Notes: generated by a model from the letters alone, not told the origin. DNA of 58,707 nucleotides from Candidatus Omnitrophota bacterium (GCA_028713155.1 JAQTPA010000005.1:1-58707), one strand, 5' to 3'; shown: positions 25,643 to 52,586, counted from the stretch's first letter. A program made the numbers and translations.

Positions 25643-25663
25643 CCTACTTTTTACAATGTTCTC

Positions 25664-35747: not shown

Positions 35748-36719
35748 ATGCGCGATCCCGACATATCGAATAGTTTAGTGAGTATTATTATAGTGACTGC
35801 CGGCATGAAGGATTATATTCTATCTTGCCTGGATTCGTTAAGAAAGCAGAGCCACCCTTTACTGGAAGTTATTGTAATTGATAATTCGCTACGCCCGGAA
35901 TTGAAATCCCGGATTTCCCGGGAATTCCCTTCAGTTAAAATATGCCCAGGCATAAGGAAAATATCTTACTGTGAATCCCTTAATCAGGGTGTAGGCTTAA
36001 GTAAAGGGGAATACATACTCTGCCTTAATGATGATGTAATATTGAACAAAGATTTTGTGCAAAATGGACTGCGGGGGTTTGATCTAAATAGCAAAATCGG
36101 GATAGTTAGCGGGAAAGTTTTACGTTTTGGCGGCAAGCTAATTGATAGTACGGGTTTATTCTTAAGTCCCTGGCTGACAGCCGGGGAAAGAGGCTACGGC
36201 AAGCTTGACCGGGGGCAATTTGAGGAAGCAGGGTATGTTTTTGGAGCTACCGGCGCAGTTGCCTTTTATCGTCGAAGTATGTTAGAGGATATTAAAACCG
36301 GGCAGGATTACTTTGATTCTGATTTCGGGATCTTTTATGAAGACCTGGATATTACCTGGAGAGCTAATAATAACGGTTGGAAAGGCTATTATTTGCCTTT
36401 AGCCATTGCTTATCATTTAAGGGGCGGCACGGTCAGAATAGAAAAGAATGGGCTTGATAAGAGATGCGCCAGGTTCTATTTAAATGACGAATTATATTTC
36501 AATTTGGTTAAAAACAGGTATCTTGCTATCGCCAAAAACGAAAAACTTATAGACTTTTTACTTCGGTTACCCTGGATTATTATTTATGAAATTGCTACCT
36601 GGTTCCTGATTATTTTTTCCCGCCCGAAGTTATTAAGTAAATTTCTTACTCTGCCCTCCTTGGTGGTGTCTGCGTTTGAAAAAAAGTCCAGGAAGGGCAT
36701 TTCTAAGCTCCTCTGCTAG
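35748..36719 (+). CDS. GT2 glycosyltransferase (WbbL/rhamnosyltransferase-like)
   Basis: VIDN, LNDD, GAVAFYRR, FYEDLDITWRA, YHLRG. Confidence 0.85.
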   Translation: MRDPDISNSLVSIIIVTAGMKDYILSCLDSLRKQSHPLLEVIVIDNSLRPELKSRISREFPSVKICPGIRKISYCESLNQGVGLSKGEYILCLNDDVILNKDFVQNGLRGFDLNSKIGIVSGKVLRFGGKLIDSTGLFLSPWLTAGERGYGKLDRGQFEEAGYVFGATGAVAFYRRSMLEDIKTGQDYFDSDFGIFYEDLDITWRANNNGWKGYYLPLAIAYHLRGGTVRIEKNGLDKRCARFYLNDELYFNLVKNRYLAIAKNEKLIDFLLRLPWIIIYEIATWFLIIFSRPKLLSKFLTLPSLVVSAFEKKSRKGISKLLC

Positions 36720-36822: not shown

Positions 36823-37329
36823 GTGACAGAAAAGTACAATCTTACGGGTGAAACCGGAATCGTAAAAAGAGTGAAAATATCCAAAGGAATAATAATTTTT
36901 AGTATTTTAATCATTATCTATTCCTTGCATGGCCTGCCCACCGTTAATTTTAATACCTATTACACCAAGTTTTATCCTTCGCCGGAAAAGGCAATTCTGG
37001 CTCGCTATATTTTCTCTATAGCCCTGAGAATAGTCTTGGTTATTTCAGGCGTAGGAATTTTATTCCGCAGGGATATTTTCCGGAAAATCATTCTGGGTAT
37101 CAGTTTTTTTACCGTTGCCACTGTTTACTGGAAACACCCGGTTATTTGTTTCAAAAGAGTCCTGATATGGAAGATTAACCAAGGCGTACTTCCTATTGAT
37201 GTGCTGCCAAAAATTGATATGCTATCCCGGGTTAGCGCTATAATTTGCTCTAGCGTTGATATTGGTTTTGCTCTTTGTTTAGTATATTATTTTACCCGTC
37301 CTAAGGTAAAGCAACAGTTTATGCGATAA
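36823..37329 (+). CDS. Hypothetical small membrane protein (about 4 TM)
   Basis: 168-aa ORF with hydrophobic segments behind a plausible promoter; GTG start position uncertain. Confidence 0.65.
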   Translation: MTEKYNLTGETGIVKRVKISKGIIIFSILIIIYSLHGLPTVNFNTYYTKFYPSPEKAILARYIFSIALRIVLVISGVGILFRRDIFRKIILGISFFTVATVYWKHPVICFKRVLIWKINQGVLPIDVLPKIDMLSRVSAIICSSVDIGFALCLVYYFTRPKVKQQFMR

Positions 37330-37914: not shown

Positions 37915-37989
37915 ATTTATTAGACTATAAAAATAGCTTCTAAGCAGCAAGAAGCGCGGCAGTTTTAACCATTGTTTTATAATTTCAAA

Positions 37990-38646
37990 ATGAATTTATT
38001 AGACCAAAGGGTATTGATTAATAAGATGTATGCTTCAAAACCAGCGGATTACTATTTTAAACAGATGCATTTACCAGGTTTGCGGGGCGCATGGTTCAGG
38101 GCAAGGCAGAAAACTACCACGAGGCTTGTAAAGGAGTATTTTAAAGGAGGCATAATTGCCGATATAGGTTGCGGGAACTGCCTATGGAATAATATGAATA
38201 TGCCTACCATAGGGATTGATATTTGCGAACCAATGCTAAGTTATAATCTAGGTAATATTCCTTCTTTTTTTCCCTTAAAGTCGGATATAGCTAGGGGGTT
38301 ACCTTTAAAGGATAACAGTATTGGTATAGTAGTTGTTACCGAATTATTGGAGCATTTTATCTCTTACGATTTCCTATTTAAAGAAATCTTCAGGGTCTTG
38401 AAAAGCGGAGGAGTTGTCATAGGTTCAGTCCCATATGGCGCATTTCCGGGGGTCTGGGGTTTTGTGTTCCCGCTTTGGTGTAAATATAAGGTCTGGAGAG
38501 ATAAAGATGAGTATTATTCGCATGACTGTGGTCATAAAATACAATTTAATGCTAAAAAAATAAATTTGGGATTATCAGATTTCAATCTCCTGGAATTATT
38601 CAGTTTATACTACTTAACCTTATTTTTTGTAGCTAGAAAGAAATAG
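37990..38646 (+). CDS. Class I SAM-dependent methyltransferase
   Basis: IADIGCG, GIDI, ELLEHF, VLKSGG. Confidence 0.85.
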   Translation: MNLLDQRVLINKMYASKPADYYFKQMHLPGLRGAWFRARQKTTTRLVKEYFKGGIIADIGCGNCLWNNMNMPTIGIDICEPMLSYNLGNIPSFFPLKSDIARGLPLKDNSIGIVVVTELLEHFISYDFLFKEIFRVLKSGGVVIGSVPYGAFPGVWGFVFPLWCKYKVWRDKDEYYSHDCGHKIQFNAKKINLGLSDFNLLELFSLYYLTLFFVARKK

Positions 38647-38647
38647 A

Positions 38648-39580
38648 ATGCTAGAGTTTATTAGGTATATCGACATAATTAAGCGAAAGCCCTCTGTTAT
38701 TTACCCGGCGTTAAGAGCGTTCCTAAAGACTAACCTTTTGAACAAAAAGATATTGCGCGGAGTAGACATCGCCGTTACTTATCGCTGTCAAGGAAAGTGC
38801 AAAAAATGCTCCTGTCAGAATCTAATAGAGAATGGCCGGCCAGAAATGTCGAAAGAAGAAATTATTAATATATCTAAGCAGATTATTTCTGTTGGAGGGA
38901 TATTGGTAAATTTAACGGGTGGCGAACTTTTACTACGTCCAGATATAAAGGATATTATTTTTAGTCTGGATAAAATGCCCGTGATTATTTCGATTTCGAC
39001 AAATGCGGTATTACTGGATGAAAAGTTATTAAGAGATTTAAAGCAGAGCGGGCTACATGTCCTTCAGCTTAATCTTAGTAGCCCTTATCCTGAAGAGCAC
39101 GATGCGGAGATGGGTATTGTCGGTAGTTATAAAAATGTAATTTCTGCCATGAGAATAGCGAAGGAGATCGGAATAAGCGTATTGCTTAATACCGTGATTA
39201 CTAAAGAAATAATTTATTCCTACAGGATTAAAGCTTTAGTCGGTTTGGCTAGAGAGAACAATGCCTATCTCTCTTTAGTTTTACCAGCAGCAGTAGGCAG
39301 GTGGAAGGGGAATTATGACTCGGTTTTGAACCGGGAAGATTATAATCTTCTAAAGAGTTGGCTTAGGTTAAAATTTGTCACTATAGATACTAAAACTTGT
39401 TATAAAAAAGGAGCATGTCCAGCAGGCACAGAAAAGATATATGTAAGCCCTTACGGCGATGTTTACCCGTGTCCTTTCATACATCTGAAAATGGGCAACC
39501 TTTTGAAAGATACTCTTTCGCAATTAAAACAGAATATCGCTGGCCGGCAAAATTTCACCAATTGTATTAATATAAAGTGA
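38648..39580 (+). CDS. Radical SAM protein with SPASM/twitch domain
   Basis: VTYRCQGKCKKC, TGGE, STNA, CPAG...YGDVYPCPF. Confidence 0.87.
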   Translation: MLEFIRYIDIIKRKPSVIYPALRAFLKTNLLNKKILRGVDIAVTYRCQGKCKKCSCQNLIENGRPEMSKEEIINISKQIISVGGILVNLTGGELLLRPDIKDIIFSLDKMPVIISISTNAVLLDEKLLRDLKQSGLHVLQLNLSSPYPEEHDAEMGIVGSYKNVISAMRIAKEIGISVLLNTVITKEIIYSYRIKALVGLARENNAYLSLVLPAAVGRWKGNYDSVLNREDYNLLKSWLRLKFVTIDTKTCYKKGACPAGTEKIYVSPYGDVYPCPFIHLKMGNLLKDTLSQLKQNIAGRQNFTNCINIK

Positions 39581-39669: not shown

Positions 39670-39743
39670 TTCTGGGCCGGCATCGAGAGAATATACGATG
39701 CTTAAGGAAGGGTAAAAAATGGAGTGCTGTGGGAAAGCCGGTA

Positions 39744-41405
39744 ATGGATAAAAAAATCAATATCGCAATTGTCGCCATAATTCTTCTTTCCGGGATACTT
39801 CTGCGGGTGCACGCTATTAATAAGTATGATTTATGGTACGACGAATTGATCTCTAACCGCTATTCAGCAGAGATATTTAACAAAACTATGGCGCTCCGGG
39901 GGAATACATTCATACTCTCCAGGTCTTCTTATGATTGCCATTCATCTTTTTTGTATTATCCGTTAGTTTATATATATAGCTCTTTATTCGGTGGCGGTAA
40001 ATCCTTAAGGATTCTATCTGTATTTTTTGGTATTTTATCGCTTTTAATATTTTATAGGCTTTCTTTACTGTTTCTGAACCTTAAAGAGAGCCTGTATGCG
40101 CTGTTATTTTTAGCTCTTAGCCCTATTCAGATCTGGTATGCCCAGGAGGCAAGGGGGTACACAGTCTTTTTCTTTTTGTCCACACTCCTACTTTATTTTT
40201 ACATTAGAGCTTTAAGGAAAAATAAAAATTCGGATTGGGTTTATTTTACGATTTCAGGTATAGTTGCTTTTTACGCAACCTACTTTTCTATTTTACTACT
40301 GGCAGTTTCAGCTTTTCCTCTTTTATTTAGGAGTAACCGCCGGTGTATTAGGAAATGGTTTTTTTCAATTGTTATAATTTTTGCCGCCTCAATCCCACTT
40401 CTTGCTCTATTGATGGAACGGTTGCATCTTTTAGGGGGGTATTGGCTATGGAGACCGCAATTAAATGACCTTTTGCTTACTTTCTCCGTATTCAATCTCG
40501 GATACTCCGTTACTTCTTTACAGGCCGGTTTAGGGCTGGTATTATTCGGTGCTTTATTTATCTATGGAATTCATTCTTTTTATAAAGTTGAGAAAATAAA
40601 TATGACCACAATGCTTCTTTTTATTTTATTTCCTATTATTTTCATTTATGCTTTTTCCATTTTTTTCACTCCTATCTATATCCACAGGCAGCTTTTGATT
40701 TTTTCTCCCTTTTATTACCTATTTGTGGGGAAAGGGCTCCAGAATATCAAGAATAATATCTGTCGGAGGACGGCATTTGTCTTGGCGATAATTATTATCG
40801 GGTTCTCTTTAAACAATTATTACAGCGGGTTTATTACCCCTGCGCACGAGTACAGAAGAATAAATAATGAATTTTACGCCGGAATCCATCCTAAGAAGCG
40901 ATACGGCCGTATAGTTTCTTTATTAGATGATGAATTTAAGAAGCAGAATTTAATCTTCGCATTAGATTTGCCTTCTACGGTCTTCATCCTTTGCTATTTG
41001 ATGGATAAGCAGAGAGCAGACAGTGCTTCCGATACTAATAGTTTTGTAGGATTATTATTTTCCAGATATTCATTGGAACCGCATGAGTTAATGTATGTGG
41101 AAAAGAAGAAAGATATTACTCTCCAAAATTGTCGCTTTAATAAGGAAGAGTTATTTTGTTTTTCGATAGGCCCAGCAAAAGGCGTAAGAAAGATTAAAAT
41201 AGAGGATGTCCCTTCAGACAAGATTTGGTTTATTTCGTATAATTGGAGCCGGCAAGCAAAATTTCTAGGGGATGGATTTTATGGAAGGTCTACGGCAGGT
41301 ATAAAGATGAAGACGCACCTTATTTTTAAAAGAGAATTCAGGTTTTGTGAAGATGGAGTTTGCGCAGAACTTTTTAGGAGAAGAAGTCCTACGGATAAGA
41401 GATAA
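39744..41405 (+). CDS. GT-C fold membrane glycosyltransferase (third LWxDE paralog)
   Basis: DLWYDE, LRILSVFFG, QIWYAQEARGY, multiple TM segments. Confidence 0.82.
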   Translation: MDKKINIAIVAIILLSGILLRVHAINKYDLWYDELISNRYSAEIFNKTMALRGNTFILSRSSYDCHSSFLYYPLVYIYSSLFGGGKSLRILSVFFGILSLLIFYRLSLLFLNLKESLYALLFLALSPIQIWYAQEARGYTVFFFLSTLLLYFYIRALRKNKNSDWVYFTISGIVAFYATYFSILLLAVSAFPLLFRSNRRCIRKWFFSIVIIFAASIPLLALLMERLHLLGGYWLWRPQLNDLLLTFSVFNLGYSVTSLQAGLGLVLFGALFIYGIHSFYKVEKINMTTMLLFILFPIIFIYAFSIFFTPIYIHRQLLIFSPFYYLFVGKGLQNIKNNICRRTAFVLAIIIIGFSLNNYYSGFITPAHEYRRINNEFYAGIHPKKRYGRIVSLLDDEFKKQNLIFALDLPSTVFILCYLMDKQRADSASDTNSFVGLLFSRYSLEPHELMYVEKKKDITLQNCRFNKEELFCFSIGPAKGVRKIKIEDVPSDKIWFISYNWSRQAKFLGDGFYGRSTAGIKMKTHLIFKREFRFCEDGVCAELFRRRSPTDKR

Positions 41406-41432: not shown

Positions 41433-42779
41433 ATGAGAATATTGCTGATTTATCCGAATGTCTATCCATATGCTAATTATGTTCAGAAAATATATTTAGC
41501 TAAAAAGTTCCCCCTTGGCCTTATTAGCCTTGCTTCCTGTATTTTAAAAAATAAACATAAAGTAAAAATTTTTGATGCCTTGACTCTTAGGGCTTCCGAA
41601 AATGAGGTTAGCTCTGTGATAAAGGAATATAAGCCAGAACTTATTGGCATAGGTAATTTATCTTATTTTGACCTCGGTAGTGTCTTTAAGCTAGCAGATT
41701 TATCTAAGAAAATAAATTCAGAAGTTATCACGGTTGCCGGAGGCATCACAGAAACTTTTATGAGTAAGGAAATATTAGAATTCTGCCCTTCTTTGGATTT
41801 TATTATCAGGGGTGAAGGAGAATTGCCTTTTTTAGAGCTAATCGAAGCCTTAGAAAAAGGCAGCGGCCTAAAAGACATTAACGGCCTTGCCTATCGAAGT
41901 AACAGCGGGGTTGTAGTGCTTAAGAATACTTGTCAGTATAATGATTTCACCATTACCCCTTCGATGCTGAAAGATATTTTTATTAAACCGTATCGCCTCC
42001 CATATTTTTTGGGGAAAGTTAATTTGCTTATACAGGGTTCGAGGGGGTGCCCTTACAATTGTAGTTTCTGCATTGTGAATGAATTCTGCGGAAATCAAGT
42101 CAGATATAAAAAACCATCTCTTATAGCAGAAGAAATGGAAGCCTACTGTAATTATCTTAACGCCAAGAGATTTATTTTCGTTGATAGCACTTTTACTGTG
42201 AATAAAGATTTCGCGTATAGAGTAATGGAAGAAATATTAAAAAGAGGGCTGCATAAGAAGGTTAGATGGGGGTTTGGCACTCGTGTTGACTGCGTAGATA
42301 CCAAATTATTAAGAGCGTTAAAAAACTCCGGTTGTTACATCATAAGTTTCGGAGTAGAGTCTTCATTGCAAGAGGAGCTTAATGCATACAATAAGCGCAT
42401 CTTCCTGGATCAAACTATTGAAGCCTTTCGGCTAAGCAAGGAGAATGGCATTAAAACCAAAGCTACCGTAATTATTAATCAGTATAGATATAGGAAAATT
42501 AGCGAATTTGATAAGCATATAAAAAATACTATTTCGTTCCTGAACGTTCTTAAACCAATAAAAGTTGGTATCGCCCCATTAATACTGTATCCGCATAGCG
42601 AACTCTATTTTGATTATTTAAATCGAAAGCTTATCCAGCAAAATGGTTCAGATTTTCTCTTAAGGGGCCATCTTATTCCTTCAAAGTTTATAGCGGAGAA
42701 TTTAATTTTTAATAGAATCTTTAAAATGTACCTAAAAGTCCGTTTCAATATTTATCTGAATAGATTTAAAAATTTTTAG
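41433..42779 (+). CDS. Cobalamin-binding radical SAM protein
   Basis: MRILLIYP, PLGLISLAS, GEGE, SRGCPYNCSFC, FVDSTF, TRVD, FGVES. Confidence 0.9.
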   Translation: MRILLIYPNVYPYANYVQKIYLAKKFPLGLISLASCILKNKHKVKIFDALTLRASENEVSSVIKEYKPELIGIGNLSYFDLGSVFKLADLSKKINSEVITVAGGITETFMSKEILEFCPSLDFIIRGEGELPFLELIEALEKGSGLKDINGLAYRSNSGVVVLKNTCQYNDFTITPSMLKDIFIKPYRLPYFLGKVNLLIQGSRGCPYNCSFCIVNEFCGNQVRYKKPSLIAEEMEAYCNYLNAKRFIFVDSTFTVNKDFAYRVMEEILKRGLHKKVRWGFGTRVDCVDTKLLRALKNSGCYIISFGVESSLQEELNAYNKRIFLDQTIEAFRLSKENGIKTKATVIINQYRYRKISEFDKHIKNTISFLNVLKPIKVGIAPLILYPHSELYFDYLNRKLIQQNGSDFLLRGHLIPSKFIAENLIFNRIFKMYLKVRFNIYLNRFKNF

Positions 42780-42787
42780 ATAATATT

Positions 42788-43909
42788 ATGTGCGTTAAAG
42801 TCTTAGCAATAGCCAGGCATATCTTTGTAAATATTATCAGTCTTTTATTGCTAGCCTATGGAAAAAAGGCAGGTAGTAATACGATTGCTTATAAAACAAT
42901 CCGGCATACATTTCATAAGTTCATGAAGGGAGGAAGGTTACTCTTTGTTAAACTTGATCTTACCGAAAGATGCAATGGGAATTGCGAATATTGTTATTCA
43001 GAAAGAAGAGATATCGAGCCTTCTTTAGGTGAAATTGAAAAATTTTTTTCCCAGCTTAAAGGTCGGTTATGCGGGATAGATTTGATGGGTGGAGAGCCTA
43101 TGCTGAGAGAAGATATCAATGAAATTATAAAAGCAGCAAAAAAAATCGGTAAAATTTTTCGGGTCAGAATGTTTACGAATGGTACGCTAATCGATAGAAA
43201 GTCAGCAATTAACTTAAAAAATAATGGGCTGGGTGTCGCTTTCGTATCTTTTTATTCCAATGTTGCTTCTCTTCAGGATAGTGTTTCAGGATACGATGGA
43301 ACATTTGAGAAGAAAATAACCGCTATCAAAGAATTAGTCCGGGCTGGTATTAAAACTTACACATTTACTGTGCTGAATAAAAAAAATGTCAATCAAATAA
43401 CGTCAATTCGCACCTTAATAAGGGAACTCGGTGCAAGCCCTGTTTTTTCAAATCAAATACCCATCAATAATGAAATATCCAGTATTCAACTTACCCCTAA
43501 AGAAGTATATGGAGTCAAAGAGTCTTTAGGAAAAAATAGTAAAGCCCATATGACTATGGTTAATAATATGTTTGAGTTTGCGGAAAGAGTCTGCTTTGGA
43601 GGGTACTATCTTCTTTCAATTAAGGTCGATGGAGCAGTAACTCATTGCCCTTTTATATATGATATTGCTTTAGGCAATGCGTTTAAAGAGGATATTTTTG
43701 AGATATTTAAAAGAAGATTTTCTGTGAAGGCCTTCAGGGATGCCTATGGAATACCAGCTGAATGTTTACCTTGTGTATTCGTAAAATATTGCAAAGGAGG
43801 ATGTCGGGCTGGTAACGCCGATTACAGTAAGAAATCCTTTTCTTGTCAGGGGCCCTGGCAGGATGTTGAATTTGGGAAAATGTCATATTGTATCTCTCAT
43901 TGGTTTTAA
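42788..43909 (+). CDS. Radical SAM protein with full SPASM domain
   Basis: LTERCNGNCEYC, GGEPML, TNG, CFGG...HCPF...ECLPCVFVKYCKGGC. Confidence 0.9.
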   Translation: MCVKVLAIARHIFVNIISLLLLAYGKKAGSNTIAYKTIRHTFHKFMKGGRLLFVKLDLTERCNGNCEYCYSERRDIEPSLGEIEKFFSQLKGRLCGIDLMGGEPMLREDINEIIKAAKKIGKIFRVRMFTNGTLIDRKSAINLKNNGLGVAFVSFYSNVASLQDSVSGYDGTFEKKITAIKELVRAGIKTYTFTVLNKKNVNQITSIRTLIRELGASPVFSNQIPINNEISSIQLTPKEVYGVKESLGKNSKAHMTMVNNMFEFAERVCFGGYYLLSIKVDGAVTHCPFIYDIALGNAFKEDIFEIFKRRFSVKAFRDAYGIPAECLPCVFVKYCKGGCRAGNADYSKKSFSCQGPWQDVEFGKMSYCISHWF

Positions 43910-45193
43910 ATGTATAGAGACATTTTAACACCTTATTATTTATTAAAGGTATTTAAGCACCAGCGTTATTTAGGCAATGAACCTAAAAAAGCGCAGAATA
44001 AATTATTGTGCCGTTTAATAGCAGAGGCATATCAAAACTCGCCATTTTACCGGAAAATATTTGACGGGATAAAATTGACGTCAAAAGATATAAAAGAAAC
44101 TCAAGATTTAAAAAGACTGCCAGTTATTAATAGGAGGCAGGTAAGAGAAGCCCTGGAGCAAGGCAGTATATTAAATAGGAAATATCTAAAAGGTTCAATA
44201 TGCCGTAGCACTTCTGGTTCTTCCGGATTACCGCTTACAGTTGTATATGATATAAAGAGTTATGCGTATACTGATGCTATATATGTAAGGTCATTACTTA
44301 AGCAGGGAGTAAGAATAAATGACCGCATAGCCTATTTTTGGTATGAACCTTTTAGGAAAAGAAGCTTTTGGGAAAAAATGGGCATATTCAAAAAATTCGA
44401 AATTATATATACCGAAAACGAAAAATTACAATTTTCTCGATTAGAAAAAATCAAACCTTCGGTTATCATTTCTTTTCCTACCTTATTGTTGCCTTTATGC
44501 GAAAGAATAAAAAATAAGAAGGTTTCTTTTAAACCGAGAATCATAATTACCCATGGGGAGCTATTAACCGAAGATACAAGAAAGAGGATAGAAGAGGCAT
44601 TCAATGCCTGCGTTGTTGAACAATACGATTCCAATGAATTTAAAACGATAGCCTGGCAGTGTACGGAGGGCGGAAATTTTCATATAAATGACGACAGCGT
44701 TTTTATAGAAACTCTAAATGAAAATAACGAAGAAATAAAAGAAGGAGAATTAGGTAAGATTGTAATAACGGGTTTGTCTAATATAGCTATGCCGCTGATA
44801 AGATATTCAGTAGGAGATTATGGTATTAAGACAAACGAAATATGCCGGTGCGGAATAATTTCTTCTATGTTGAAGTCGATCGAAGGTAGAGGAGATGATT
44901 TTATAATTACTCCAGAAAAAGAAATAATTAGCCCGCGGCGCATAGGAGGGATTTTAGAGAAATTTGAAAGTATAAGAGAGTATAAATTTTTACAGGAAGA
45001 AATAACTAAATTTTCGTTGTTTATAATACCTTCCGGAAAATTTTCAAATGAGGATGAAATGAATATTCGCGAGGCATTAAGCAATGTCCTAAGTAAAGGC
45101 GCAAGATTATTTATCGAAAAAATACAATCTATGCCTAGAGGTAAAACAGGGAAGATAAAAGCGATTGAATCTAGAGTAAGCAGATATGGCTAA
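43910..45193 (+). CDS. Phenylacetate-CoA ligase-like (PaaK/CapK/F390 synthetase) adenylate-forming enzyme
   Basis: SPFYR, STSGSSG P-loop, HGELL, QYDSNE, MPLIRYSVGD, GRGDD, TGKIK. Confidence 0.85.
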   Translation: MYRDILTPYYLLKVFKHQRYLGNEPKKAQNKLLCRLIAEAYQNSPFYRKIFDGIKLTSKDIKETQDLKRLPVINRRQVREALEQGSILNRKYLKGSICRSTSGSSGLPLTVVYDIKSYAYTDAIYVRSLLKQGVRINDRIAYFWYEPFRKRSFWEKMGIFKKFEIIYTENEKLQFSRLEKIKPSVIISFPTLLLPLCERIKNKKVSFKPRIIITHGELLTEDTRKRIEEAFNACVVEQYDSNEFKTIAWQCTEGGNFHINDDSVFIETLNENNEEIKEGELGKIVITGLSNIAMPLIRYSVGDYGIKTNEICRCGIISSMLKSIEGRGDDFIITPEKEIISPRRIGGILEKFESIREYKFLQEEITKFSLFIIPSGKFSNEDEMNIREALSNVLSKGARLFIEKIQSMPRGKTGKIKAIESRVSRYG

Positions 45194-46121
45194 AAAGATA
45201 GAAGGCATAACTTTATATACCACTTCTGAGTGTAACCTGGATTGTATATATTGTTATGCCCGCGACCTGAGAGAATATAATAGTTGTTTTACGATGCCGG
45301 AATGGGAAGGTATTATTTCGCAGGCACGAACAATGGGAGCTAAATGGGTTATATTTGCCGGTCCAGGAGAGCCGTTATTGGATGATATGAACTTCAAATT
45401 GATCAAATACGCTAATGCTCTCGGAATGAAAAGCATACTTTTTACCAATGGTACATTGATTACCGAGCCTATCGCCGAAGATTTATTTTCAGCCAGTGTA
45501 GATATTACCGTTAAGATGCCTTCTTTTAATCCCCAAATATATAATTTATTATCAGGGTCTCAAAATTCCCTGCGATGGGTTGATTATGAATTTAAATATA
45601 AGGATACAGAACTAAAATATCCTATTCCGCTTTATCTGTATATTTTATTAAAAAAGTATAAAGGTGCCTCCAGGAGGAAGAAATGCTCTTTAAGAATAGA
45701 ATCCGTTATCACAAAATACAACCTTAGATGCCTGGTAGATATAGCTAAATTTATTCAGGCACATGGTTTGGGTTTTCTTTTTGAAACCCTGATTTTTAAT
45801 AATTCCAGGGATTTTGATAGGTTGATCCCTGGTGAAAAAGATTATCTGTTTCTTTTCCGGGAATTAAAAAAGTGCTTAGGCTGGAGGTTTATAGTTGGGC
45901 AAAATCAGTATAAATGCCGGATAAGAAGAAATCCCGTAATCCTGCAGAATGGCGATATTATGCTTTGCCTTGTTGAGGAGGGAAAGATAGGGAATATCCG
46001 GCAGAATAACTTAGGGGAGCTTTGGCAAAGAAGGTTATCTATAAAAGATGAAAGTTTAAAATATAAACGTTTTTGTGGGTTTCGGAACTGCTTGGGTAGA
46101 CAATCGTGTAATAAGAGGTAA
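45186..46121 (+). CDS. Radical SAM protein (twitch-like C-terminus)
   Basis: TTSECNLDCIYC, GPGEPLL, FTNG, C-terminal cysteines. Confidence 0.85.
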   Translation: MAKKIEGITLYTTSECNLDCIYCYARDLREYNSCFTMPEWEGIISQARTMGAKWVIFAGPGEPLLDDMNFKLIKYANALGMKSILFTNGTLITEPIAEDLFSASVDITVKMPSFNPQIYNLLSGSQNSLRWVDYEFKYKDTELKYPIPLYLYILLKKYKGASRRKKCSLRIESVITKYNLRCLVDIAKFIQAHGLGFLFETLIFNNSRDFDRLIPGEKDYLFLFRELKKCLGWRFIVGQNQYKCRIRRNPVILQNGDIMLCLVEEGKIGNIRQNNLGELWQRRLSIKDESLKYKRFCGFRNCLGRQSCNKR

Positions 46122-46132
46122 AAAACCATATT

Positions 46133-47515
46133 ATGAGCGGTACACCTTACGTTATACTTATTAATCCTCCTTTTGGATTTTCCTCTAATCCTGAACTTAC
46201 TGTTTCTTATCCGCTTGGTTTAATGTATATAGCATCCTTACTTGAAAAGAAAGGGGTAAAAGTAAAAATCATTGATTTTATTAATAATAGGGATACCCGG
46301 TTTATAGAAAATACCATAAAAAATAATAAAGCGGATATTTTTGGAATAAGTGTATTGACAAGTAATAGGTATGAAGCTTTTAAAATTGTAAAAATAATTA
46401 GAAAATTACATAAACAAAGTAAGGTTGTCTTAGGGGGGACGCATGCTACGCTTTTATACCAGCAGATCTTAGAAAACACAGATATTGATGCTATATTTTT
46501 GGGCGAGAGCGAACTTTCTTTTTTAGAATACTCAATGGCTTTTGGGCAAAATGGGGATGTTTCTCATATACCCGGCATCGCTTTTAAAAAAGCCAGCGGC
46601 GAAATAATAGCTAATCCTATTAAATGGGTAGAAGATATAGATACTATTCCTTTGCCTGCCTTTCATCTTGTAGATTTAGACAATTATAAGAATAAAAGGA
46701 ATGAAATAGACTTCCACATGCTTACTTCAAGAGGATGCCCTTTTTTTTGTAATTTCTGTAGCTTACCAGCGATACATAACGGTAGGTACAGGCTACATAG
46801 TGTAGCCAGGGTTCTGGAAGAGCTGGAATTAGTGAGCGGTTTCAAAAAGAATTGCCGGGTTATGCTGCATGATGATTTTCTCAGTGCGGCCGATAAGAGG
46901 ATGAGGGAACTATGCGAGGGGATAATAAAAAAAGGGATTAAACTAAAGTGGTCTATTCGTTCTAGGGTTGATACCGTAGATTTAGATACGCTTAAATTAA
47001 TGAGGAGTAGCGGTTGTGAGGAAATATTCTATGGGATAGAAAGCGGCAGTAGGGCAATTCTCCAGAGTATGAATAAAAGATTTAATATTGAAGATGCTAA
47101 AAATGCATTTAGTCTGACTAAAAAGAGCGGCATAAAAGCAATATGCTATATCATAGTGGGTTATCCGGGAGAGAATCACGGAACAGTAAAAGATACTCAA
47201 AAATTATTATTTTCTCTTGCTCCCGATAAAATATATTTCTCCCTGGCCGGAATTTTCCCCGGCACTACGTTGTATCAGCAAAGCATAAAAGACGGCGTAA
47301 TAAAAGATAGCTATTGGCTTAAGAACGGTAATCGGGTACCCCTATATACTAAAGATATGAGCTGTATTAATATGTTGATGTATGTTTATATAATAAGACT
47401 GTCTTTAGAAAGGGGGCTTATTAGAAAAATTATTTTTTTATTGAGGTCGATACCCCGAGAACTAAGTTTTGAATATAATGTATTAAAAAGCCTATTATTG
47501 GATAAAACTAATTAA
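46133..47515 (+). CDS. Cobalamin-binding radical SAM protein
   Basis: LINPP, YPLGLMYIAS, GGTHAT, GESE, SRGCPFFCNFC, SRVD, YGIESG, FPGT. Confidence 0.92.
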   Translation: MSGTPYVILINPPFGFSSNPELTVSYPLGLMYIASLLEKKGVKVKIIDFINNRDTRFIENTIKNNKADIFGISVLTSNRYEAFKIVKIIRKLHKQSKVVLGGTHATLLYQQILENTDIDAIFLGESELSFLEYSMAFGQNGDVSHIPGIAFKKASGEIIANPIKWVEDIDTIPLPAFHLVDLDNYKNKRNEIDFHMLTSRGCPFFCNFCSLPAIHNGRYRLHSVARVLEELELVSGFKKNCRVMLHDDFLSAADKRMRELCEGIIKKGIKLKWSIRSRVDTVDLDTLKLMRSSGCEEIFYGIESGSRAILQSMNKRFNIEDAKNAFSLTKKSGIKAICYIIVGYPGENHGTVKDTQKLLFSLAPDKIYFSLAGIFPGTTLYQQSIKDGVIKDSYWLKNGNRVPLYTKDMSCINMLMYVYIIRLSLERGLIRKIIFLLRSIPRELSFEYNVLKSLLLDKTN

Positions 47516-47518
47516 AAT

Positions 47519-48682
47519 ATGGCACTATTATTCCAACCTGCCTGTTTAGGTAAAATGAAATTGAAGAATCGCGTCATTAGGTCAGCGACCTTTGAAAATA
47601 TGGCGGATGCCGACGGCTCTCCGGACTTAGAGATATTAAATTTATACAAAGAATTAGCCGAAGGAGAACTAGGATTAATTATTACAGGCGCTGCTTATGT
47701 TAATAAAGAAGGCCAAATCCTGCCTTTACAAATTGGCGCGCATGACGATTATGTTATGGCAAAATGGGAAGCGACAATTAAATTAATGCATAGTTACGGG
47801 ACGAAGATAGCGGTTCAGGTTGCTCACGCAGGAAGATTGATTAATACTAGGTTTATGGACAGGCGCCATCTTCTATTTCCTTCTAAGGGAGCTAAATATT
47901 TAAGATTTTCTCCGGTTAGGGAGATGACAAAAGACCAGATATATAAAACGATCTCTGATTTCGCTAATGCAGCTAAACGTATAAAAAAGACTGGTTTTGA
48001 CGCCGTCCAGATTCACGCGGCGCACGGTTATTTGATTTCAAGCTTCCTTTCGCCTATAACTAACCGCCGCCTTGATGAATGGGGAGGGGATAGAGACGGA
48101 CGCTCCCGCTTCCTGCTAGAAATATATAAGGCCATGCGGGAAGCGGCGGGGGCAGATTTTCCAATTTTATGCAAATTAAGCGTAGACGATTTCGTAGAAG
48201 GAGGGATAGTCTTAGAAGAAATTATACCTGTTATCCAAAAGCTTTTTGAAAATGGACTTAATGCTCTGGAAATCAGCGGAGGCGAAATGTTTCAAATGTT
48301 TTTTCTTAGAGGTAAAGAGAAGTTAAATTTCGACTATTTCCTTGATTACGTAAAATACACTTTTATCAGCAAGATTTCTGGCTTAAAGAGAAAACCGATT
48401 TTTTTTCAGGAAGCCTATTTTTTAACTTATGCAAAAAGGATAAAACAAATAGTCAACATGCCATTGATACTTTCTGGCGGCATAAGGGACTTCTATGTTG
48501 CAGAGAAGATAATTGCTTCAGGATTGGCGGATTTTATCTCTCTTTCGCGTCCATTAATTTGTGAGCCTGGTTTGCCTAATAGATGGCAGGCGGGAGAGCG
48601 GCATCCGTCTGTATGCAGATCCTGTAACCGTTGCCTTTACGGATTAATAAAAGACAATAAGAAGTTAAAATGTTATTATTAA
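47519..48682 (+). CDS. NADH:flavin oxidoreductase (old yellow enzyme family)
   Basis: LKNRVIRSAT, QVAHAGR, QIHAAHGYLISSFLSP, NRRLDEWGG, C-terminal CRSCNRC. Confidence 0.92.
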   Translation: MALLFQPACLGKMKLKNRVIRSATFENMADADGSPDLEILNLYKELAEGELGLIITGAAYVNKEGQILPLQIGAHDDYVMAKWEATIKLMHSYGTKIAVQVAHAGRLINTRFMDRRHLLFPSKGAKYLRFSPVREMTKDQIYKTISDFANAAKRIKKTGFDAVQIHAAHGYLISSFLSPITNRRLDEWGGDRDGRSRFLLEIYKAMREAAGADFPILCKLSVDDFVEGGIVLEEIIPVIQKLFENGLNALEISGGEMFQMFFLRGKEKLNFDYFLDYVKYTFISKISGLKRKPIFFQEAYFLTYAKRIKQIVNMPLILSGGIRDFYVAEKIIASGLADFISLSRPLICEPGLPNRWQAGERHPSVCRSCNRCLYGLIKDNKKLKCYY

Positions 48683-49659
48683 ATTCTATTTCGGATAACC
48701 TTAAAAATTATTACCGGGTCAGAGTTCTCTCTAAAAAACCAATTCAAAAAATATTTTTAGTTCCGACATACCGCTGTAATTTAAAATGTGATTTCTGCTA
48801 TAGTAGGGGATTGGAGAATGAATTTAAAGAAGACATGAACAGAAAGAATTTGAATTCCGCTTTGAATTGGTTAAGATTAAATAGAATTAATGTTTTTGGA
48901 CTTCTTGGAGGCGAGCCCACAGAGTATCTTTATTTTGAAGAACTTATGGACTTGATTAAAATTTATAAGATGCGGGTTATTTTGCCTACTAATAATTTAT
49001 TTAATCCGTCTTTATTGAAGATTCTTCCCCGGAAATATATAGAGATTATGATCTTGAATTATAATAAAGAAATTTATAGCGAAGAACAACATAAAAGATT
49101 TAAAAATAATTTGGAAAGCCTAAAAAAAATTGGTTTTAAGCTAGGTTTAATGTTGAATATAAATAAAAATAATTATGACAAAGAAGCTATAGTTTTAGCG
49201 AAATATTTCAAATGCGATATCCGGTTTACTACTTCTTGTCCGGCCTATTTTAATAACATCTATGTTCCTTTAGATAAGTTGTCTACCTTCAAGGAAGTCA
49301 TGGTTAGTTTTGTAAAAGAATGCAAAGAGAATAAAGTCAAGGCAATGTTCTCTAGGCCCATAATTCCCTGCATGTTTAATAAACGAGATTTGAAAAACTT
49401 AAAGCCTTCTGCGGTAAGATATACCTGTAATATTATCCCTGTGGTTAATCCAGATTTATCTATTTTTGCCTGTCATAATATCTTTAAAAGATTTCCTAAT
49501 CTTTTGTCCTTTAAGAATCTGGGTGAACTTAATAAAAGGACCAATCTTTACGCAGAGCAATTAAGGAGAATACCGCTATTACCGGAATGCTTAGACTGTA
49601 AACTTTACTCAAACCATAAATGTCAAGGGGGCTGTCTTTCATATAAACAGTATCAATAA
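48670..49659 (+). CDS. Radical SAM protein with SPASM-like C-terminus
   Basis: PTYRCNLKCDFC, GGEP, ECLDC...CQGGC. Confidence 0.87.
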   Translation: MLLLNSISDNLKNYYRVRVLSKKPIQKIFLVPTYRCNLKCDFCYSRGLENEFKEDMNRKNLNSALNWLRLNRINVFGLLGGEPTEYLYFEELMDLIKIYKMRVILPTNNLFNPSLLKILPRKYIEIMILNYNKEIYSEEQHKRFKNNLESLKKIGFKLGLMLNINKNNYDKEAIVLAKYFKCDIRFTTSCPAYFNNIYVPLDKLSTFKEVMVSFVKECKENKVKAMFSRPIIPCMFNKRDLKNLKPSAVRYTCNIIPVVNPDLSIFACHNIFKRFPNLLSFKNLGELNKRTNLYAEQLRRIPLLPECLDCKLYSNHKCQGGCLSYKQYQ

Positions 49660-49742: not shown

Positions 49743-50531
49743 ATGGAAAAAATAGTTAGATTGGAACGTATTGGTATTCTCGGCGGTTATGACAAGAATG
49801 GCCAGCCGGAGCCGGTCCGGGAAGTAGAATTTAATATGGGACAGGTAGCTAGTATTGTAGGTGCTACCGGTTCAGGCAAGACAACCTTGATAAAGGATGT
49901 TGAGCTCCTGGCGAATAAAAATACGCCTTCAAACCGCACGATTACATTTAATGGCATAGTACCTTCTGAAGAATATTGCCCTGTACCTTCGGATCGGCTG
50001 ATCGCCTTGATTACCCAGCACACGAATTTCCTTTCCGATATGCGGGTCAAGGATTTTTTAGTAACCCATGCTTCTATACGTGGTTCCAGGGGAGAAAACT
50101 CGGTAGTGGATGAGACTCTTATGTTTGCAAACCAATTAACCGGAGAATCCATTGATACCGCTAATGTAATGACAGAACTATCTGGTGGTCAGACCCGCGC
50201 ACTTATGATTGCGGATGCGGTAGTAATCGGAGAATCACCGATAATTCTTTTAGACGAGATTGAGAATGCCGGTATCCATCGTATAAAAGTCTTGGAGCTC
50301 CTAAAGCAGTATAAAAAGATTTTTATTTTTGTTACTCACGATCCCCGTATTACGCTGCTTTCTGATTTTCGGATAGTTATGAAAAATGGCGCAATGCAGA
50401 AAGTTATTGCTACAAATGGAGAAGAGAAAAAAGTAGTTGAACAAGTCAAAAAGATTGATGATTTGTTATTAAGATTAAGGGCGTATATACGTAATGGAGA
50501 AATTATTACTGAGTTCCATCTAAAGGAATAA
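49743..50531 (+). CDS. ABC-type ATPase without adjacent permease
   Basis: Walker A GATGSGKT, signature LSGGQ, Walker B ILLDE, H-loop VTHD. Confidence 0.88.
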   Translation: MEKIVRLERIGILGGYDKNGQPEPVREVEFNMGQVASIVGATGSGKTTLIKDVELLANKNTPSNRTITFNGIVPSEEYCPVPSDRLIALITQHTNFLSDMRVKDFLVTHASIRGSRGENSVVDETLMFANQLTGESIDTANVMTELSGGQTRALMIADAVVIGESPIILLDEIENAGIHRIKVLELLKQYKKIFIFVTHDPRITLLSDFRIVMKNGAMQKVIATNGEEKKVVEQVKKIDDLLLRLRAYIRNGEIITEFHLKE

Positions 50532-50533
50532 TA

Positions 50534-51235
50534 ATGAAATTAGCGATTTGTTCAGGTCCTCCGACAAGCGGTAAAACTACCGTATTGAAACATGTCATAA
50601 AAAAACTTACAAATAAAGGCGAAAATACCGCTTTTGTTAAAACTGATGTTCAGTTTGCCTGTGAAGATGATTTCTTTGCGCAGGAGTTAAACATCCCGAC
50701 TAAAAAAATCTATTCCGGGGAACTATGCCCGGATCATTGCAATGTAATGATCCTGGGGGATGCGCTGGAATGGGCAGAGAAGGAAAGAGCTACTGTGCTT
50801 GTAGTAGAGACGGCAGGATTATGTCTCAGGTGTTCTCCTTATGTCGAAGGCGCGTTTGGAATGGTGGTGCTTGAGGCGACTAGCGGGATGAACCTACCGA
50901 AGAAGATCGGCCCGATGCTTTCGCTGGCCGATATCGCGGTAGTCACCAAAATTGATTTAATTTCCCAAGCTGAAAGAGAGGTCTTTCGGGCCAGGATATT
51001 AGAAGTTTGTCCGGGGATGCGGATTATCGAATCAGATGCCTTACATGGGATAGGTGTTGAACCGATTGTAAAAATGATTTATAATTCTTCTGATATGAAA
51101 GAACCTATTTATTTACGGGGTAACCCTCCTATTGGAACTTGCACTATATGTGTGGGTAAAAAGGAGATTGGCTGGAAGCAGCATTTTGGCATAGTCAGGC
51201 CTTTGGATAATCAGGTTTTTTATAGAGGTGAATGA
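50534..51235 (+). CDS. G3E-family (HypB/UreG/CobW-like) metal-chaperone GTPase
   Basis: GPPTSGKTT, ETAG, TKID; Cys motifs LCPDHC, LCLRC, CTIC. Confidence 0.82.
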   Translation: MKLAICSGPPTSGKTTVLKHVIKKLTNKGENTAFVKTDVQFACEDDFFAQELNIPTKKIYSGELCPDHCNVMILGDALEWAEKERATVLVVETAGLCLRCSPYVEGAFGMVVLEATSGMNLPKKIGPMLSLADIAVVTKIDLISQAEREVFRARILEVCPGMRIIESDALHGIGVEPIVKMIYNSSDMKEPIYLRGNPPIGTCTICVGKKEIGWKQHFGIVRPLDNQVFYRGE

Positions 51236-51851
51236 TATGAAAGACTGCGGAGGGTGTGGATCCCGTACTTGTGCTGAGTTTTATGAGAAATTAAAGGAAA
51301 ACCCGAGTTTAATTATTAATTGTATCTATATCCACAAAAGCAAAGAAGAAACAAAAGAAAAAATTGTTGAAAATAATAAGGTAACATTAAAGGATTCTTT
51401 AGGGAGAGAATTTGATTTTATCCTAGAGCATTTTCCTGAGGAACCCGGACCGCGGGAAATCATTATTCCTCATAATCCTACGCTTACCCGTGAAATGGAC
51501 CTTAAGGAGGGAGAAATAATTATCGGTAGGCCATTAGGGGTATCTTGCGGTTGCCCGGTGACTCATTCCGGGGTCATTAGGGATATCGATAAAAAAACAG
51601 GCGTGATTGTCTGGTGTGTTACCGGCCCGCTTACTGCGCGGCAAAACAGTTTCAAGGATTTAGGATATTATATCGCGTTAGCGTATGAAGGGTTAATCCA
51701 GGAGAGTCGTTGCGAAGTTAAAATAGGACTACGTTATTTTTTTCAACCGCGCAGATGTATGTTGCAGTGGAGACATAGCGGTTTAGTTAATTATCTCAAC
51801 AGTACTCCTGTTGGTTTGCAGGCGCGGTTGGAAGGCCTGTGGATTGGGTAA
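51228..51851 (+). CDS. Fe-S-binding domain protein
   Basis: N-terminal DCGGCGSRTC...NC (RnfB-type FeS domain pattern) plus CGCPVTH and further Cys/His residues. Confidence 0.75.
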   Translation: MNDMKDCGGCGSRTCAEFYEKLKENPSLIINCIYIHKSKEETKEKIVENNKVTLKDSLGREFDFILEHFPEEPGPREIIIPHNPTLTREMDLKEGEIIIGRPLGVSCGCPVTHSGVIRDIDKKTGVIVWCVTGPLTARQNSFKDLGYYIALAYEGLIQESRCEVKIGLRYFFQPRRCMLQWRHSGLVNYLNSTPVGLQARLEGLWIG

Positions 51852-51911: not shown

Positions 51912-52412
51912 ATGAGAAAAATAATTTTAGTTTTAGCCTTTGCTTTAATGATTCAACCGGGATATGAGAATATTATTGTATTAGCTGAAGAAGGAATGGC
52001 ATCAGTGAGTCCAGTAACAGAAGAGAAAGATTCCGCAGAAATTAAAAAATTATTAGAAACTTATTTCTCGTGTGTTACTCGGCAGGATTTAGATTGTACA
52101 ATGAGTTTTGTTTCAAAAGAATTTTCGGCAGCATCCCAAGATAAAATCCTGGATTATGACAGCCTAAAGTTCTATTTTGAAGATGTATTTAAAAAGACGG
52201 TAAATAGGTCTTTTAGCAATCTGAACGTGCTTGAGTTAACTGTATCGGGTGATAAGGCGACTATTCTGATAGAATATAATTTAAAGTTCTTTAGTTTGGA
52301 CTTAGCCCGAGAGGCCAAGATGCCGCGAATGGCGCAGTATTCTTTAATTAAAGAAGGCGGCGCTTGGAAAATTGTATCTCTAGAGAGGTTCCAAAATCCA
52401 AATGATGTATAG
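51912..52412 (+). CDS. Exported NTF2-like (DUF4440/SnoaL-like) protein
   Basis: Signal peptide, GGAGG SD, IKKLLETYF...VSGDKAT...LIKEGGAWKI pattern. Confidence 0.7.
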   Translation: MRKIILVLAFALMIQPGYENIIVLAEEGMASVSPVTEEKDSAEIKKLLETYFSCVTRQDLDCTMSFVSKEFSAASQDKILDYDSLKFYFEDVFKKTVNRSFSNLNVLELTVSGDKATILIEYNLKFFSLDLAREAKMPRMAQYSLIKEGGAWKIVSLERFQNPNDV

Positions 52413-52533: not shown

Positions 52534-52586
52534 ATATCCTATCGACGGAAGTCAGGCGGCTTACTTAAGCTGAGAGAGGAGCAAAG

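Follow-up and report, generated by a model that had tools for sequence, protein, structure and literature searches.

This work concerns a run of seven genes (positions 41433 to 49659) on a contig of Candidatus Omnitrophota bacterium, which encode two radical S-adenosylmethionine (radical SAM, rSAM) proteins with a B12-binding domain, three rSAM proteins of the SPASM/twitch type, a PaaK/CapK-like adenylate-forming ligase and a member of the Old Yellow Enzyme (OYE) family that carries an Fe-S motif. We propose, at a probability that we put a little below 0.6, that these genes are the cytoplasmic tailoring part of a lipid-linked sugar-decoration module of the GT2/GT-C type (~35.7-49.7 kb), i.e., one that also comprises a GT2 and a GT-C glycosyltransferase. 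Such a module would probably decorate the cell surface with a sugar of unusual chemistry. The proposal is based on the recurrence of gene 3 (the ligase), gene 4 and gene 5 (both rSAMs) among GT2 and GT-C genes in related contigs, in which genes 4 and 5 form an invariant pair. Most of what is known about rSAM enzymes that act on sugars comes from antibiotic pathways (GenK, AprD4, DesII, BtrN and BlsE), and, to our knowledge, the use of such chemistry in cell-envelope glycans is essentially unexplored.

Genes 4 and 5 recur together beside GT2 and GT-C genes

The window analysed here is the full 58,707-bp contig (C1) of an assembly of 1.23 Mb that is 90% complete. Contigs with homologues of the ligase and of gene 4 were fetched, and all of their open reading frames (ORFs) were compared with the window proteins. 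Five contigs, with a G+C (GC) content of 34-49% and probably from different organisms, carry a gene 4 orthologue (Table 1). Gene 4 is accompanied by gene 5 and by a GT2 gene in all five, by an orthologue of the GT-C gene PMT2_e in four and by the ligase in three.

Table 1. Orthologues of window genes in the five contigs with a gene 4 orthologue (percentages are identities to the window proteins).
Locus	Ligase (gene 3)	Gene 4	Gene 5	Gene 7	PMT2_e	GT2 genes	Gene order
L001	53%	48%	58%	none	34%	1	PMT2_e, ligase, gene 4, gene 5, GT2
L005	48%	39%	53%	45%	none seen	1 + Wzx flippase	ligase, gene 4, gene 7, gene 5, GT2, Wzx-type flippase
L057	47%	46%	49%	none	34%	2	GT2, ligase, GT2, methyltransferase, gene 5, gene 4, PMT2_e
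L055	none within 10 kb	51%	56%	none	34, 36%	2	GT2, GT2, gene 5, PMT2_e, gene 4
L056	none within 10 kb	48%	53%	none	34%	2	GT2, GT2, gene 5, PMT2_e, gene 4

A preliminary description of this DNA, made from the sequence alone, had treated the seven genes as one cassette and had asked whether they travel together in other genomes. They do not: two to four of them co-occur, genes 4 and 5 are the sole constant pair, and the exact seven-gene order was present only in this genome among everything compared. The well-defined core therefore consists of genes 4 and 5, with or without the ligase, together with the GT-C gene, and the seven-gene set itself is not a unit. As its parts recur in differing combinations, they appear to be shuffled among islands.

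The cassette had also been called free of glycosyltransferases. This is correct between 41433 and 49659, but the GT-C gene PMT2_e ends only 27 nt upstream, at 41405. Its position and the linkage of its orthologues make the cassette part of a GT2/GT-C module, and the cassette start at 41433 is an arbitrary boundary. PMT2_e encodes a 'YDE' motif after its first hydrophobic segment and has orthologues with 34-40% identity over ~540 amino acids (aa), which adjoin genes 4 and 5 in L001, L055, L056 and L057. In two further loci, L058 and L060, PMT2_e orthologues adjoin rSAMs that resemble gene 7 (31-33% identity).

Six related modules also encode a ~245-aa family without Pfam match, of which tblastn detected no member in the window. 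Its members are 28-56% identical to each other, carry the motifs GTxYEY, AGLPExYGYSxD, SCEVxQR, PNGDN and DMPPWPPG, and are located in L001 (16129-16863), L003 (14761-15552), L043 (8680-9420), L055 (14358-15095), L056 (10945-11682) and L057 (12566-13294).

Predicted functions of the seven proteins

Domains were called using Pfam and NCBIfam with curated cut-offs, complemented with relatives in the PDB, and ORFs were read from the sequence (Table 2). The ORFs, their spacings (8, 0, -8, 11, 3 and -13 nt) and the domain matches bear out the preliminary description of seven abutting or overlapping genes with five rSAMs around a PaaK-like ligase and an OYE. None of the seven proteins reaches the cut-off of a named NCBIfam family. 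The absence of a carrier protein or precursor peptide, noted earlier as well, also holds at a wider scale: the contig encodes no acyl or peptidyl carrier (PP-binding) domain, a search of the whole genome gave no PqqD/RRE domain, the intergenic gaps of the cassette are too small for a precursor gene and no small ORF fits. A His-x-Ser repeat is absent from every frame of the window. Promoter and terminator scans gave counts at chance level and no operon boundary, and Rfam detected two tRNAs only, with neither a cobalamin nor a SAM riboswitch.

Table 2. Positions of the seven genes and of neighbouring features in the window.
Feature	Position	Strand	Length	Assignment
GT2 glycosyltransferase	35748..36719	+	323 aa	Glycos_transf_2 (Pfam, E 1e-16); hydrophobic C-terminus
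Class I SAM methyltransferase	37972..38646	+	224 aa	Methyltransf_11 (Pfam)
rSAM/SPASM protein	38648..39580	+	310 aa	Radical_SAM + SPASM (Pfam)
PMT2_e, GT-C membrane glycosyltransferase	39729..41405	+		PMT_2 (Pfam); ArnT/PMT-like
Gene 1	41433..42779	+	448 aa	B12-binding + Radical_SAM (Pfam)
Gene 2	42788..43909	+	373 aa	Radical_SAM + SPASM (Pfam)
Gene 3	43910..45193	+	427 aa	PaaK/CapK-like adenylate-forming ligase
Gene 4	45186..46121	+	311 aa	Twitch-type; Radical_SAM + weak SPASM match (Pfam)
Gene 5	46133..47515	+	460 aa	B12-binding + Radical_SAM (Pfam)
Gene 6	47519..48682	+	387 aa	Short OYE; Oxidored_FMN (Pfam)
Gene 7	48670..49659	+	329 aa	Radical_SAM (Pfam); C-terminal CxxCx8Cx3C
ABC ATPase / CobW (G3E) GTPase / Fe-S protein trio	49743..51851	+		Pfam matches

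The ligase (gene 3) is a single-copy gene in the genome. Its protein is predicted to belong to the ANL/PaaK-like enzymes, as the P-loop, YxxxE, YxxGD and GRxDD motifs and the C-terminal lysine are all present: the core motifs TSGSSGLP, YDSNE, RYSVGD and GRGDD align to the PaaK motifs in PDB 4R1L (E 4e-23), and the C-terminal lysine motif GKTGKIK was read from the sequence. The catalytic motifs are intact, and the cassette enzymes look active. Gene 3 shares its fold family and core motifs with PaaK (PDB 4R1L, 2Y27/2Y4N), but it scores far below the PaaK equivalog cut-offs (100.7 vs. 646.3 bits for TIGR02155 and 113.2 vs. 700 bits for NF041878), has no paa genes nearby and is located in a context of glycan synthesis. 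All its matches to the PaaK, FlxY, DVU_1553 and F390-synthetase models of NCBIfam are below cut-off. It has no match in the local Pfam copy, which does not include PF27533; the precomputed Pfam label of gene 3 and its relatives, which was not rescored, is PF27533 (CapK_C). This label and the location in a glycan locus both agree with the CapK/VpsH type, and GT2, GT-C, SDR or flippase genes lie beside the ligase relatives in every related contig.

VpsH of Vibrio cholerae is a PaaK/CapK-like protein whose deletion in a vpsI background results in a glycine-free lipid-linked disaccharide of the Vibrio polysaccharide (VPS). It is required for amide-linked glycine on the lipid-linked sugar acid, on genetic evidence only (PMC13463779). 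Like VpsH and the capsule 'CapK' proteins (PF27533), gene 3 encodes a PaaK-like adenylate-forming enzyme inside a glycan locus. Gene 3 is translationally coupled to an rSAM gene, an arrangement that the VPS paper does not mention for VpsH. By analogy, amino acid amidation of a sugar acid, as for VpsH, would be the nearest functional precedent for a ligase of this type (PMC13463779). A literature search on CapK biochemistry and on clusters of rSAM and GT-C genes returned nothing specific beyond PMC13463779 and PMC11127046.

An rSAM gene lies within 1.1 kb of the ligase gene in all seven homologues with at least 35% identity and abuts or overlaps its 3' end in five of them. At 25-32% identity, 8 of the 21 homologues have an rSAM neighbour according to BLAST, or 10 of 21 when two neighbours with only a CxxxCxxC motif are included, which are counted as rSAM-adjacent in the labels of the ligase tree. 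In this maximum-likelihood tree, the window ligase is part of a seven-member clade (ultrafast bootstrap 97, SH-aLRT 91), each member of which is adjacent to an rSAM gene. One ligase homologue (45% identity) is located on a 183-kb Candidatus Omnitrophota contig, and a search of the genome contigs with the single ligase sequence gave no confirmed relative. Three glycan loci (L030, L035 and L042 of genomes G140, G397 and G294, respectively) comprise two to three tandem CapK-like ligase paralogues, some of them interleaved with rSAM genes; such paralogues in Omnitrophota glycan loci suggest serial amide or ester decorations. In L044 (9817-12052), a ScmC/PqqD/rSAM-SPASM set (SynChlorMet-type, peptide-like) is located directly downstream of a ligase/B12-rSAM/rSAM/PMT_2 module.

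Among the non-B12 rSAMs, genes 2, 4 and 7, all three encode a C-terminal Cys-rich tail of the twitch/SPASM-like kind. Gene 4 overlaps the ligase gene by 8 nt and belongs to a small family: in 5.8 billion proteins, ~10 clusters (formed at 90% identity) are 45-65% identical to it, after which identity drops to 32%, and its best match in 400 sampled genomes of the phylum is 32% identical. The family has invariant cysteines at C16, C20 and C23 (SAM cluster) and at C244, C261 and C302 (auxiliary cluster). When the AlphaFold2 model of gene 4 (mean pLDDT 87.8) was compared with the PDB using Foldseek, the peptide maturases SuiB, SkfB, anSME and CteB were found together with viperin, MoaA, BlsE and DesII, all with similar TM scores of ~0.6. 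A phmmer search of gene 4 against the PDB listed WD40 and designed repeat proteins with zero stretches passing, and these were rejected as spurious.

Gene 2 has a SPASM match of 27.5 bits in Pfam, and every NCBIfam match is far below cut-off. Its orthologues (50-58% identity) occur in two genomes of the phylum, G272 and G150. In G150, they adjoin gene 7-like rSAMs, and a PMT2_e orthologue (40%) lies at a distance of 6-7 kb. In G272, the gene 2 orthologue lies beside a weakly gene 7-like rSAM and GT2 genes, and the PMT2_e orthologue (39%) is located on a separate contig with gene 7-like rSAMs of its own. No ligase or OYE gene was seen near the gene 2 orthologues of G272 or G150. Gene 7 overlaps the OYE gene by 13 nt, and its cysteine-rich tail motif (Table 2) was read from the sequence. 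Its one orthologue (45% identity) is found in L005, between the orthologues of genes 4 and 5.

Genes 1 and 5 encode an N-terminal B12-binding domain (PF02310) and a radical SAM core (PF04055) with a CxxxCxxC motif, the architecture that defines class B rSAMs (Pfam 1e-12 and 2e-17 for gene 1, 1e-18 and 8e-21 for gene 5). This order of a Rossmann/B12-binding domain and a CxxxCxxC core is shared with class B enzymes that act on sp3 carbons, such as QCMT and the GenK-type sugar C-methyltransferases. The two proteins differ from these enzymes by their low identity, no equivalog threshold is reached, and cobalamin binding and methylation are only predicted. Neither protein attains the cut-off of a named class B family (BchE, HpnR, HpnJ, PhpK, QCMT, BzaD or ladderane-type): the best NCBIfam match is BchE, with 167 bits for gene 1 and 176 bits for gene 5 vs. 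a cut-off of 481, and QCMT scores 128 vs. 360.

The nearest solved relatives of gene 5 are QCMT (9CCB, E 1e-21), which is the methyl-coenzyme M reductase glutamine C-methyltransferase (PMC12931638), and the aminoglycoside diol dehydratase AprD4 (E 2e-19), a B12-independent look-alike. Gene 1 has OxsB, AprD4 and QCMT as PDB relatives at ~1e-12 and is a paralogue (27-30% identity) of other B12-rSAMs in the island. It has no orthologue in the related loci; a separate phylum-wide search was not made, as the many paralogues blur orthology. Another contig of the assembly, C29, has a B12-rSAM paralogue (~25152-26408) beside a gene for an acyl carrier protein (24695-24892), at ~24.7-26.4 kb.

Despite its many rSAMs with a B12-binding domain, the 1.23-Mb genome (90% complete) yielded no CobS, CobD/CbiB or PduO-type adenosyltransferase. 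Cobalamin, if it is used, must be imported. Probably, the organism is auxotrophic for cobamides, or some of these domains function without cobalamin as in AprD4.

Gene 6, also present as a single copy in the genome, matches Oxidored_FMN (PF00724) with 197 bits and belongs to a widespread, uncharacterised family of short proteins (~390 aa). It is predicted to combine a flavin mononucleotide (FMN) ene-reductase site with an Fe-S motif. The FMN TIM barrel with its HxxHGY active site is shared with YqjM-type OYEs, FadH and TMADH; H166, H169, C366, C369, C372 and C385 are invariant in the family and Y171 is nearly so. The CxxCxxCx12C motif is invariant as well, and we take its spacing to resemble the cluster motif of TMADH/FadH. 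The multidomain organisation of FadH and TMADH is not shared: gene 6 ends at residue 387, without their NAD(P)H/FAD domains. Its PDB matches are 3GR7, 1Z41 and 1PS9, and the matched regions cover residues 5-241 of the 671-aa chain of 1PS9 and positions 2-243 of 645 of the mycofactocin OYE-2 profile. The closest relatives (48-50% identity), from Syntrophobacteraceae, Desulfomonilia and similar metagenome-assembled genomes, are located beside TetR/hydrolase or SDR/Ldh genes and lack rSAM and glycan genes in their surroundings. No gene 6 orthologue is present in any related glycan locus examined, and gene 6 was recruited only in this lineage.

A model for sugar tailoring and its alternatives

The addition of single sugars outside the cell by three-component GT2/flippase/GT-C systems is well established (PMC11127046). 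The ArnC/ArnEF/ArnT and GtrA/GtrB/Gtr-type systems and the pentofuranose systems of PMC11127046 resemble the window in having a GT2 and a PMT_2/GT-C gene in one operon-like block; PMT2_e is the GT-C gene that lies next to the module. A further resemblance is the location of sugar-modifying genes between the GT2 and the GT-C gene. In the Arn pathway, this place is taken by the sugar-modifying enzymes ArnA, ArnB and ArnD. The tailoring part of the present module differs in kind, as it consists of five rSAMs, an adenylating ligase and an OYE, and not of formyl and amino transfer. Moreover, a small flippase was not recognised among the window genes, and all scores against the named families are below cut-off.

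In the proposed pathway, the GT2 would load a sugar onto polyprenyl phosphate, unless the sugar is still nucleotide-bound at this stage. The CapK/VpsH-like ligase would then use ATP to convert a carboxylate to an acyl-adenylate, from which an amide or ester bond would be formed, either between a uronic acid of the sugar and an amine or amino acid, or between a small acid and an amino sugar. The pair of genes 4 and 5 would perform radical chemistry on unactivated carbons of the sugar or its appendage, with C-methylation plus oxidation, dehydration or epimerisation as the likeliest reactions. As this pair recurs without a nearby ligase, its action would be independent of the ligase step and the ligase would be optional. 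Further steps, among them the reduction of an activated C=C bond, would be added by genes 1, 2 and 7 and the FMN/[4Fe-4S] ene-reductase and would be peculiar to this genome. Finally, the lipid-linked sugar would be flipped and transferred by the GT-C (39729-41405) to an envelope acceptor outside the cell.

We further suggest, tentatively and with the odds leaning against it, that genes 4 and 5, often joined by a CapK-type ligase, represent a dedicated radical tailoring unit, not described to date, which acts on a lipid- or nucleotide-linked sugar before transfer by the GT-C. If true, C-methylated and/or amino-acid-amidated sugars that have not yet been reported in bacterial glycans would be expected, and the islands of Omnitrophota would be combinatorial libraries of radical tailoring units. 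Genetic linkage ties the small and sharply bounded gene 4 family, along with its B12-rSAM partner, to one GT-C lineage, one CapK-type ligase clade is coupled to rSAM genes, and ~4% of the 1.2-Mb genome is devoted to such modules. The gene 4/gene 5/ligase/GT-C combinations offer testable enzyme sets for new sugar modifications, and the modules may help explain the surface variation of ultra-small, probably host-attached Omnitrophota.

Several points weigh against the proposed sugar-decoration module. What the substrate is, in which direction ligation proceeds, which type of radical reaction takes place and in what order the steps follow are all predictions from sequence. Genes 4 and 5 occur without the ligase in L055 and L056, which shows that the ligase is not obligatory. 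The likeness of gene 3 to VpsH is one of family and locus context. The Foldseek comparison of the gene 4 model does not discriminate between substrate classes and so gives no evidence of a sugar substrate. Judging by its matches, the nearest GT2 (35748-36719) appears closer to the exopolysaccharide type than to the ArnC/GtrB type, and no GtrA/ArnEF-like flippase was recognised among the annotated ORFs of the window, for which no dedicated test was made.

The preliminary description had offered two options, namely an acyl or aromatic substituent of the glycoconjugate or a separate small-molecule pathway. Since the orthologues of genes 3, 4 and 5 always lie between GT2 and GT-C genes, we favour the glycoconjugate; nothing points to an aromatic substrate. 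A natural product or cofactor pathway embedded in the glycan island, in which the rSAMs and the OYE would elaborate an acyl-CoA or acyl-adenylate into a diffusible metabolite, appears unlikely. It would agree with the usual formation of CoA thioesters by PaaK-type ligases (as for the PDB relatives), with the role of the PaaK-like BagE/FevW and AjiA1 in natural-product pathways, with the general metabolic contexts of the OYE relatives and with the lack of a glycosyltransferase gene inside the cassette itself. However, every related contig has the conserved genes (3, 4 and 5) interspersed with GT2 and GT-C genes, the cassette includes no transporter, regulator, carrier protein or acyltransferase, and the GT-C gene that lies 27 nt upstream is on the same strand.

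We rate as equally unlikely that the rSAMs and the OYE act on a lipid, either the polyprenyl carrier or a membrane lipid, by methylation, C-C or ether cross-linking or saturation of double bonds. An isoprenoid double bond could be saturated by an ene-reductase, gene 2 has a weak likeness to the tetraether synthase Tes, and genes 5 and 1 match the lipid-type B12-rSAM model TIGR04072 and HpnR/HpnJ. Yet all of these scores are far below cut-off and no better than those for BchE, PhpK and QCMT, and the best solved relative of gene 5 methylates an amino acid carbon. A sugar target also suits the close coupling with a CapK-type ligase and with the sugar-nucleotide enzymes SDR and DegT better than a lipid target does.

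Maturation of a ribosomally synthesised and post-translationally modified peptide (RiPP), in which the SPASM/twitch rSAMs would cross-link or epimerise a peptide before its glycosylation by the GT-C, is less probable still. Enzymes of the SPASM/twitch type are typically peptide maturases, genes 7 and 2 and the gene 4 model match SuiB, YydG, SkfB and anSME, and GT-C enzymes of the PMT_2 type can glycosylate proteins, but nucleotides and sugars are substrates of these folds as well (viperin, MoaA, BlsE and DesII). The weak HxsC/HxsB matches (57 bits for HxsC vs. a cut-off of 268) are set against a window in which no frame contains His-x-Ser, a cassette with no precursor ORF in or near it, and a genome in which PqqD/RRE was not found.

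A known cofactor pathway, i.e., alternative heme/heme d1 (Ahb/NirJ) or mycofactocin synthesis, which the preliminary description had named as a result that would overturn its reading, is highly improbable and was excluded on scores below cut-off, even though AhbD, NirJ1/2, AhbC and the mycofactocin rSAM and OYE are among the weak NCBIfam matches: AhbC/AhbD/NirJ reach 37-98 bits vs. cut-offs of 500-650 (AhbD 97.5 vs. 500; NirJ2 86 and 72 vs. 500) with no siroheme decarboxylase or precursor gene in the window, and mycofactocin rSAM and OYE-2 reach 64 vs. 265 and 200 vs. 793 bits, respectively, with no PqqD-type MftB found in the genome and no precursor ORF.

The surrounding glycan island

The sugar-decoration module proposed here is located in a low-GC glycan island (1-50 kb) with 33-39% GC at 32-50 kb vs. 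44-48% at the housekeeping end of the window, where dnaX, recR and tadA are found at 54-57 kb. The island comprises six PMT_2 GT-C genes, several GT2 genes, SDR and DegT sugar-nucleotide enzymes, four U32 genes and more than 12 rSAMs. Two of its GT2 proteins resemble polyprenyl-phosphate sugar synthases at scores below cut-off: the GT2 at 16795 matches ArnC with 138 bits vs. 529, and the GT2 at 30006 matches the dolichyl-P hexose transferase/AglJ model with 121 bits vs. 375. The GT2 nearest upstream of the module (35748-36719) has weak PgaC/HpsN-type matches only in NCBIfam. It is followed by a membrane ORF (36823-37329, 168 aa) without family match and by the methyltransferase gene, of which homologues with 30-36% identity are present in the L055, L056 and L057 modules. 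The rSAM/SPASM gene starts 1 nt after the methyltransferase gene, and the NCBIfam matches of its protein are all below cut-off. Wzx-type flippases are carried by L005 and by the P0006 contig.

DNA synteny with two genomes of the same genus (77-79% identity) begins at 52,574, at a CpaF/TadA-like ATPase gene (52587). In one of these genomes, G197, the 40 kb upstream of the synteny start contain no homologue of any island gene; in the other, G199, only 3.4 kb are readable upstream of this point before the contig ends. The ligase is absent from both genomes. Given the start of synteny at 52,574 and the lack of island genes in G197, the island is species-specific at this site.

The ABC ATPase/CobW GTPase/Fe-S protein trio downstream of gene 7 is 81, 86 and 77% identical to its counterparts in G272, a member of the same family but of another genus (L060, 3063-5172). 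There, the trio directly follows an rSAM/GT-C island of other composition, whose tailoring genes are 25-40% identical to those of the window. The trio appears to act as a conserved anchor or service unit for variable rSAM cassettes. Next to it, the window encodes an NTF2-like protein (51912-52412) with homologues (41% and 34% identity) beside or within the glycan loci of L001 and L042.

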